Positions 49,051 through 50,162 are shown, counted from the stretch's first letter. The stretch is 64,000 nt of DNA from Lepidodermella squamata (GCA_047495785.1 JBLDXI010000048.1:930001-994000); one strand, 5' to 3'. Notes: generated by a model from the sequence alone, not told the origin. Translations and numbers: made by a program.

Positions 49051-50162
49051 TTATTGTTGTTTGATATACAGAAAAAAAGGCGCCAATTTAACAAATGCTA
49101 TTTTTATAAGAGATAACGAAAAACAGCCGCTCATAATCATTTTTCCAGTGTGAAACAGTGTGGCAGATACATTTAACTTTGGTTCATTTTCATTAGTGCT
49201 GACTTTGGAGAAAACACGTATACGCAACCCAGGAAAAAATTCTGGTTGGTAAACGCATATTTTAGGAAATTGAAAAGCTAGCAGGCTAAGATTGACAGTT
49301 TTATGTAAATCGTAGAACAATACTATATTAGTAATTATTGGGTCACGGATTATCAACCGTCGATTAACAATTTTTCTGAGTGTAGCTTGAAGAACTCCAA
49401 AAGCAGTAACACAATTCGAGGCTGTTTTGGTACCACTACAAATTATAGCTCCGGATGAAAATAATAAAAACGTCGCGTTAAAAGCAGGTACTTTATAGAA
49501 CAAAGCACTCGACATTTTTTTTGGGTTATATTTTGCACAAGGTAAAATTAGGGCTAGACTATCTAAATTAAATAGAAAATTTGACCTTGATTTAGCCATA
49601 ATATTTGAAATAGAGTAATCAATATCATATTGTATATTATTTACTTCCATATTTAATGGTGGGGATTTCAATAGAAAAAAAGGTTCAGTGCTAGATTGTA
49701 GCTTTAAATCAACAGGATAGGATATAGTCAAATTTATGATCGTGGTCGACTGTGATGCGGCTGATTGAAGGCTTGTAACATACTTGATTTCAGCTGTTTC
49801 TGTTTGAACTTTGCGATAGGTTGAGGGCAAATCATGACCAAAAAAGAGGCGACAGAATCTTGCTTTCGTGACTCATGATTGGTAATTGGAACAGCTGGTT
49901 TATTTTTCGCCTTGCATGGCGTTTTCGCCGATTTAGCAACTGATTTCTTCTCAGTACCTATGACTTTTTTCTGAATTTTATGTTTAGCATTGCGTTTCGG
50001 TTGATTACGAACCGCAGTTTTTGCTAATCTAGAGGCTGATGTTTGTTCAACAGGTTCCTTGGTAAACGTACTCGTATTCGGTTCATTCAGGTTTATTGGT
50101 ACGAAATCATTGTTAGAAAAAAACAATGGAGAAGCCGGAGATGAATTGAAGAAAGCTTCCAT
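49051..50162 (-). CDS. TATA-box-binding protein (TBP)-like; core in ORF 49051-49830, probable N-terminal extension from ATG 50162 across a 1-nt frameshift near 49840
   Basis: Two TBP repeats: 'ISNIMA...NLDSLA..AKYNPKKM...FLLFSSGAIICSG' and 'ITNIV...NLSLLA...YQPEFFPGL...TLFHTGKMIMSG'. Confidence 0.88.

Follow-up and report, generated by a model that had tools for sequence, protein, structure and literature searches.

A rewired two-repeat TATA-binding protein encoded within an intact Maverick element

What does a TATA-binding protein (TBP) do inside a Maverick element? No function of a Maverick TBP is described in the literature that we searched. A preliminary description of a 64,000-nt stretch of Lepidodermella squamata DNA (the window) placed both TBP saddle repeats between the terminal inverted repeats of such an element and proposed that the protein has an altered DNA specificity. 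We found that the minus-strand ORF at 49650-49051 is a real, intact, and strongly rewired two-repeat TBP inside an intact Maverick.

The TBP, its element, and their expression

The TBP core ORF (49051..49650 (-); 199 aa, ATG to TAA) matches Pfam family PF00352 in two stretches, corresponding to the two saddle repeats, with 86.5 bits (E 1.1e-24; curated cut-off, 22.9 bits). In a PDB sequence search, 35 of 35 matches were TBPs or TBP fusions; the best were archaeal (E 2e-19), and the eukaryotic ones were near 1e-11. An AlphaFold model computed with a 122-row alignment, itself built from TBP matches, reached a pLDDT of 93.3 and a pTM of 0.85, and the single-sequence model was poor and uninformative (pLDDT 38). 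Foldseek placed the former on eukaryotic TBP structures with TM 0.77-0.83 (E 7e-16), with a looser match to TBP-like proteins of large DNA viruses in BFVD. Profile and model (TM about 0.8) agree on the TBP fold proposed in the preliminary description, and the motifs quoted there all lie where it had put them: SNIM at residue 15, YNPKKM at 41, LFSSG at 63, TNIV at 107, YQPEFFPG at 134, and LFHTG at 165. Overall identity to relatives is just 20-36%, and the frame is free of stops. The ORF agrees with its relatives in 18 of 18 columns that are at least 90% conserved among 121 of them and in 21 of 27 columns conserved at 80%. The protein has a pI of 9.7 and an insertion of about 10 residues in its C-terminal lobe. 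Its ATG at 49650 has A at -3 and G at +4, and an AATAAA overlaps the stop codon.

The surrounding element spans 32770..52172 (19,403 bp, ends AGTAGT...ACTACT) and is flanked by the target-site duplication TATTTG at 32764..32769 on the left and 52173..52178 on the right. Its terminal inverted repeats (left, 32770..32909 (+); right, 52033..52172 (-)) are 140 nt long and 96% identical, and the TBP ORF lies between them, as first described. The left repeat contains 62-63-nt units, two of which carry TATAAATA (at 32835 and 32898); one right-end unit carries it at 52107 (-). Mavericks are defined by terminal inverted repeats, (AGT)2 ends, and a 6-bp target duplication in the available text of PMC8097293. 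All three are present here, together with domains of the protein-primed DNA polymerase B, pPolB (PF03175, in four pieces), PF00665 with PF00385, and PF04665.

Beside the left end lies an accessory block (33223..35298) that encodes a dUTPase (33729-33223 (-), with an intron predicted), a deoxynucleoside kinase (about 34212-34925 (+)), and a RING-finger protein that also carries a Sina-like zinc finger (34936-35298 (+)). The polymerase gene follows at 35980..40835 (+), with 1,424 codons in 11 exons and one open frame. The morphogenesis block is on the minus strand. It includes a 137-aa basic ORF of no family (41998..42411), an A32-type packaging ATPase (42463..43306; Pox_A32 30.6 bits, above cut-off; predicted introns 43223-43167 and 42767-42715), a putative cysteine protease of 187 aa (43310..43873; a weak Peptidase_C48 match, E 0.034), a putative major capsid protein (43884..45374; 459 codons in three exons, predicted introns 44474-44417 and 43972-43920), a 180-aa ORF with an Arg-rich C terminus (45408..45950), and a putative minor capsid protein of 406 aa (45989..47209). 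The labels of the two capsid proteins and the protease are our assumptions from position and Maverick motifs, and the 180-aa ORF is a putative DNA-binding core protein; the capsid candidates had no Pfam, PHROG, or PDB sequence match. Next comes a retroviral-type integrase of 403 aa with a C-terminal chromodomain (47402..48613 (-); rve E 1.7e-5, below the Pfam cut-off, and Chromo above it). The gene of an 87-aa hydrophobic, predicted membrane protein (48617..48933 (-); intron 48871-48923 shown by contigs) sits between TBP and integrase, and its transcript overlaps the integrase start. Upstream of TBP is a transcribed 268-aa ORF of no known family (50331..51137 (-)).

The insertion falls within the 5' portion of a host gene with an ANF-receptor domain, whose flanking ORF at 31590-32762 matches PF01094. 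Judged by the flanking genes, the host is probably an animal whose introns are short. The interrupted gene (31590-32762 and 52173-52456 (-)) belongs to a local cluster of ANF-receptor-domain, membrane-receptor-like genes, with paralogs at 15947-17071 and 56866-59154 (repeats D3-D6). A separate 5.4-kb element at 22869-28264 has 689-nt inverted repeats of 99% identity and internal palindromes at 26978-27287. Its left arm overlaps a fragment at 22215-22970 (-) that, from its motifs, we take to be reverse-transcriptase-like; on the same basis, fragmented ORFs at 19243-22264 (+) presumably resemble a Mutator/MULE-type transposase with a SWIM-like zinc finger.

Copies and transcripts were examined in assembled contigs. 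X1 is a DNA run without spliced joints, X2 is probably RNA by our guess (none of the listed runs is recorded as RNA), X3 and X4 come from one sample and contain spliced contigs, and X5 gave just 18-32-nt matches. Depth in X1 was 1,614-1,770 over the TBP region, 1,533-1,909 over the remainder of the element, and 70-92 in the host flank; the element is about 20 times as deep as its flank, a ratio that does not equal a copy number. No variant is listed over the TBP region in the X1 contigs, which drop rare variants. Because its depth equals that of the rest of the element and no variants are listed, the TBP gene is family-wide and no one-copy capture, a possibility that the preliminary description had raised against its own reading. 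The X1 contigs listed for the element (35900-52172) match the window, whereas the only ones over the right flank (52173-54000) differ from it widely (15 positions listed in 52211-52458). This contrast suggests an element that is younger than the split of those host haplotypes or that replicates outside the chromosome.

Spliced joints listed for X2 account for nine of the ten polymerase introns (GT-AG, 52-61 nt), three of these nine being seen in X3 too; the tenth (39366-39427) is predicted. The nine match host-flank introns (49 and 58 nt) in size, and the dUTPase, capsid, and ATPase genes have five further predicted introns. In X2, one 1,422-nt contig covers 50087-48924 without a gap and runs through a GT-AG spliced joint into the 87-aa-protein gene. 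This is evidence that the TBP region is transcribed in X2, probable RNA, from a contig that spans two genes and establishes neither the strand, nor the start, nor a single transcript. Between the end of this contig and ATG 49650 there are at least five upstream ATGs. X3 and X4 contigs do not extend over the TBP ORF, which is evidence neither way. X2 leaves the integrase bins 47188-48515 uncovered, a weak hint against uniform DNA carry-over as the source of its TBP cover. Splicing within the 3' UTR of the upstream 268-aa gene is seen in X2, X3, and X4 (intron 50274-50326, starting 4 nt past the stop codon), with a poly(A) end near 50077 in X2, behind the AATAAA at 50097-50092. A loose X2 contig end at 51012 carries 27 letters that, matched by eye, resemble the kinase gene near 34300, and is probably chimeric.

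Residue changes and relatives

We drew a residue map of the TBP against 117 eukaryotic TBP rows, taking yeast numbering through the sequence P0002 (whose residues 18-199 correspond to 59-240 of 1rm1_A). As the preliminary description had it, both conserved Asn of the saddle are present (N16 and N108; yeast N69 and N159) and three of the four intercalating Phe are retained (F64, F139, and F166; yeast F116, F190, and F207). The L5.1 Phe is found in both lobes (F64 and F166). A Trp in place of Phe at the N-lobe L5.1 is a trait of TBPL1/TRF2 (PMC7221094), and this Trp is not present in the Maverick protein, in which F64 is Phe. Also retained, in yeast numbering, are L114, S118, K127, V161, E188, P191, R196, and K211. 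Altered positions are F99M, V71M, T73K, K120A, S163F, E186Q, L189F, I194R, V203S, L205T, and K218F.

These changes support an altered DNA-binding face, as judged from sequence. The Met that the preliminary description had singled out is indeed at the fourth Phe position (M46 at yeast F99, beside a one-residue insertion); the more telling candidates for a change of specificity lie elsewhere, at the three positions of the yeast mutant TBPm3, all of which are altered (I194R, V203S, and L205T), and at S163F, V71M, and T73K. TBPm3 (I194F, V203T, L205V) reads TGTA as well as TATA (PMC1636458). The new residues at 194, 203, and 205 differ from those of m3.

The partner-facing surfaces are changed as well. 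TFIIB is bound by E284 and E286 of human TBP (PMC7221094). The corresponding residues here are Q135 and E137, one of the two glutamates being retained (E186Q, E188). At N-lobe helix-2 positions 133, 137, 138, 141, and 145 of yeast, five basic sites of our own choice, the Maverick TBP has V81, G85, V86, A89, and K93, that is, one basic and four uncharged residues. The N-lobe basic patch of TBP is linked to TFIIA, TAF1, Brf1/2, and Mot1 and is lost in viral TBPs, according to the available text of PMC7221094.

A single-sequence search with the TBP gave 1 match among 192 candidates, and a representative protein library gave 1,196, of which the 150 listed do not go beyond E 3.7e-21 or 40% identity; a profile search returned canonical eukaryotic TBPs. 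Scans of viral contigs with the TBP, the integrase, and a capsid candidate as queries found no relative, nor did metagenome scans with the TBP and with the sequence P0001. A profile scan of the viral contigs gave five loci, four of which were scanned: three had large-DNA-virus genes and none was Maverick-like. Ten divergent matches that we looked up are records without context.

In a tree of 57 rows, a chosen subset of the matches (7 animal, 7 other eukaryotic, 10 archaeal-type, 29 unnamed divergent, and 3 viral-contig rows and the query), the Maverick TBP sits on a branch of 1.16 changes/site among unnamed divergent TBPs on the eukaryote side. Grouping it with the 7 animal TBPs was rejected (p-AU 0.007, subject to a long-branch caveat); on these sequences, recent capture of a canonical animal TBP is rejected. 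The tree showed no supported sister relationship to the viral-contig TBPs, and a 151-row FastTree gave no supported neighbor. A pairing with one row (P0040; 95/87) in the 57-row tree was flagged as a long-branch join and set aside. The phylogeny called for in the preliminary description, against host TBP/TRF2 and viral TBPs, speaks against a canonical animal grouping and yields no supported viral sister; its rows include neither the host TBP nor a named TRF2.

A basic reading frame upstream of the TBP core

Upstream of the core lies a 142-aa basic, low-complexity ORF of no family (the arm; 49734..50162 (-)). The preliminary description suggested that one extra T in a T6 run would fuse this arm, from ATG 50162, to the TBP core. 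Part of that proposal stands: the arm ORF exists, has a pI of 10.4, and is longer than expected by chance (p 0.002), and the T6 is the sole T/A run of at least 5 in the 136-nt overlap (49872-49737) between the arm and the open TBP frame. This frame extends 74 codons upstream of the TBP ATG, with no ATG of its own (49651..49872 (-); Markov p 0.022), where 15 other element genes have 0-21 such open codons and the arm ORF has 47. On sequence, the open frame favors a present or past arm-core junction, and because of it a past or recoded junction within 49872-49737 is possible.

Contigs from X1 (depth 1,770) and X2 contain no indel at the T run and no splice across the overlap; by these contigs, which drop rare variants, an assembly error at the T run is ruled out. 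T6 or A6 runs occur in 346 of 964 element windows of 136 nt (36%), and the run is not followed by a structure that would stimulate frameshifting (z +0.78). We also scored all GT-AG pairs of fitting phase as introns linking arm to core, with a matrix built from 13 shown introns; this matrix is weak, giving two true acceptors about -7 when they are left out of it. The eight top-scoring candidates measure 86-200 nt, none falls within 49-61 nt, and the X2 contig is unspliced. Because the poly(A) end of the 268-aa gene is near 50077, ATG 50162 lies in the 3' UTR of that gene, whose poly(A) signal is inside the arm ORF. The X2 contig stops at 50087 and does not reach ATG 50162; contigs cannot reveal starts.

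The arm and the core may nonetheless be, or recently have been, one protein, through recoding or through a break in the family founder at 49872-49737. The open frame and the long basic ORF speak for such a joined form, as do the N-terminal extensions that are common in cellular TBPs (PMC7221094). Against it stand the uninterrupted contigs, the commonness of T6/A6 runs, the absence of a stable structure or a fitting intron, the good context of ATG 49650, and the poly(A) signal of the upstream gene within the arm. We regard the joined form as somewhat improbable; it is compatible with each of the roles considered below, and in the predicted model the TBP core folds without need of the arm.

Candidate boxes, proposed role, and comparison with known systems

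Three identical boxes, TTATAAAAG, lie on the minus strand upstream of morphogenesis-block genes: at 45454..45462 (88 nt upstream of the putative major capsid ATG), 43408..43416 (110 nt upstream of the ATPase ATG), and 42442..42450 (39 nt upstream of the 137-aa ORF). A variant, TTATAGAA, is found at 47301..47308 (-), 99 nt upstream of the putative minor capsid ATG. The core TATAAAAG, which we take to be a canonical TATA box (that of the adenovirus major late promoter), occurs three times on the two strands of the element, each time as TTATAAAAG and at most 130 nt upstream of a gene of this block. The prior pattern TATAWAWR is present in four of the eight upstream windows of the block (p 0.0014), a set of "late" genes of our own grouping, and in none of nine other gene windows, including that of the TBP gene. 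After correction for word choice, the 9-mer has a family-wise p of 0.01-0.02 and the 8-mer one of 0.09-0.18. Post hoc, G or C precedes six of the seven minus-strand CTTATA words, and none of the seven is farther than about 300 nt from a gene start. The exact box is absent upstream of the protease, core-protein, Pro-rich, and integrase genes. The signal is modest, and host TBP alone could read TATAAAAG, a motif that would need no viral reader. Canonical TATAAATA/TATATAAA boxes also occur in repeats at 51200-51450 between two element genes. These boxes adjoin a duplicated 84-nt unit (repeats 51204-51417), across which two familyless genes diverge (50331-51137 (-) and 51591-51806 (+)), both covered in X2 and X3.

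From its residues and these boxes, we give a probability of about one half to the reading that the TBP is the element's own promoter-recognition factor for the morphogenesis-block boxes, escaping host regulators and recruiting RNA polymerase II through a weakened TFIIB contact. The protein would bind and bend AT-rich DNA, having kept both Asn, both universally conserved L5.1 Phe, F190-P191, and a basic pI of 9.7. It would read bases differently from host TBP, chiefly in the upstream half of the box, as I194R, V203S, L205T, L189F, and S163F suggest. Because four of the five checked helix-2 basic residues are lost, it may escape Mot1/BTAF1, TFIIA, TAF1, and Brf1, and with E188 kept and E186Q it would keep a weakened contact with TFIIB. 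The weakest step concerns the targets: boxes of the TTATAAAAG type, with candidate sites of the form (G/C)CTTATAAAAG, at which host RNA polymerase II would be brought to the capsid and packaging genes, producing an early-to-late switch. There is precedent in the beta- and gamma-herpesviruses, whose late factor replaces TBP on TATT promoters (PMC12197705).

The same features could serve other ends. The TBP could instead be a decoy or repressor that occupies TATA boxes, of the host or of the element's early promoters, and dampens transcription by building no working pre-initiation complex. Its DNA-facing Asn and Phe are kept while the TFIIA/TAF1/Brf1/Mot1 surface and one TFIIB glutamate are lost, the TATAAATA/TATATAAA boxes at 51200-51450 would offer it sites, and a TBP that lacks Mot1 contact would be hard to evict (PMC7221094). 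We nevertheless consider a decoy unlikely: the YQPEFFPG stirrup, including E188, is retained, a single box type clustered before morphogenesis genes fits an activator better, and host shut-off would be costly for an integrated, inherited element. The erosion of the contact surfaces, together with TATAAATA in units at both ends of the element, could also point away from transcription, to a protein that bends DNA in the terminal repeats for protein-primed replication, integration, or packaging. That role strikes us as less probable still, since canonical boxes such as these may be no more than promoters or sites for host TBP, and no Maverick precedent for it was found in the literature searched. 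Finally, a captured TBP-like gene with no current function could ride as a passenger in a young element, and present-day selection is not measurable because all copies seen are identical. Yet all 18 near-invariant columns are kept over a branch of 1.16 changes/site, the frame is intact, the fold is confident, and recent capture of a canonical animal TBP is rejected (p-AU 0.007), which makes a passenger very improbable.

The promoter-recognition reading can be extended to a one-protein late switch, an extension that we offer as speculation and think unlikely to hold in full. A reprogrammed TBP, immune to host Mot1, TFIIA, and TAF1, would read (G/C)CTTATA-type boxes and turn on capsid and packaging genes with host RNA polymerase II, and a longer basic-armed form might arise by recoding. 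With host-type introns and identical copies across host haplotypes, the element would then amount to a nuclear animal virus in active spread, with the smallest known form of a herpesvirus-like early-late program. A TFIIB-like role for the 268-aa neighbor is unsupported, the protein having no family and no homolog among 562 candidates, and no TFIIB-like gene was found among the ORFs of the element. The order of Maverick gene expression and the existence of a late, particle-building phase are questions that this element makes testable, because it is intact, transcribed, and spliced, its copies are identical, and it encodes a small protein with three candidate boxes. A natural TBP altered at the three positions of a classic yeast mutant and without the host-regulator surface is, in addition, a probe for uncoupling specificity from regulation.

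Compared with canonical eukaryotic TBPs (yeast 1ytb/1rm1, human 1cdw, and Arabidopsis 1qn3), the Maverick protein has the same two-repeat saddle (TM about 0.8) at 24-28% identity and shares N69, N159, F116, F190, P191, F207, L114, V161, and E188. It differs in having three of the four Phe, one of the two TFIIB glutamates, one of the five helix-2 basic residues, and the C-lobe insertion of about 10 residues, and in lying outside the canonical animal clade. Large double-stranded DNA viruses with a TBP commonly encode their own RNA polymerase; no RNA polymerase genes were found in the 19-kb Maverick. TBP-like genes are reported in 107 viral genomes (Ravarani et al. 2020, PMC7221094). Like the Maverick protein, the TBPs of Nucleocytoviricota, including those on three of our viral contigs (L001, L003, and L005), keep the L5.1 Phe pair, have lost the N-lobe basic signature, and vary at the TFIIB site (PMC7221094). 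Many Nucleocytoviricota also encode TFIIB by the same account, in contrast to the Maverick. The herpesvirus LTFc (KSHV ORF24, EBV BcRF1, HCMV UL87; PMC12197705) is a functional analogy, a viral TBP-like protein that directs host RNA polymerase II to late genes through an AT-rich box. It is described there as 750-941 aa long, binding the polymerase CTD, working with five partner proteins, and reading TATT, whereas the Maverick TBP has 199 aa, is far closer to a true TBP, and is paired with a canonical-looking box; no LTFc-type partners were found among the element's ORFs.

Vertebrate and nematode Mavericks (PMC8097293; 10.1101/2022.07.12.499685) share the (AGT)2 ends, 6-bp duplication, pPolB, integrase, ATPase, and two-module layout. 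Their core genes are described in the available texts as intronless, whereas the present element has short host-type introns, a trait on which membership does not depend; published work on dinoflagellate introners (PMC11957031) reports introns in Polinton-like elements. The preliminary description had called a TBP unusual for Mavericks. The term was not found in the available text of PMC10748475, PMC11161782, PMC8097293, 10.1101/2022.07.12.499685, or 10.64898/2026.10.13.758929, and in the literature searched, which did not cover subscription journals, polinton and TBP occurred together only in the versions of one paper, among the matches listed (Starrett et al. 2021, PMC8502044; preprint 10.1101/697771). 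That paper also shows that the novelty was overstated: its Fig. 5 legend concerns a map of MELD viruses with adintovirus-like PolB that already bears a TBP label, and these viruses likewise have a TBP-like gene in a mid-size polinton/adintovirus-type genome. There the TBP is just a label on a map, within a section that treats non-animal data sets, and the available text does not state the carrier virus or analyze residues, promoters, or expression. Viral TBPs as such are known, and the Maverick TBP described here is a well-anchored example, not a first.
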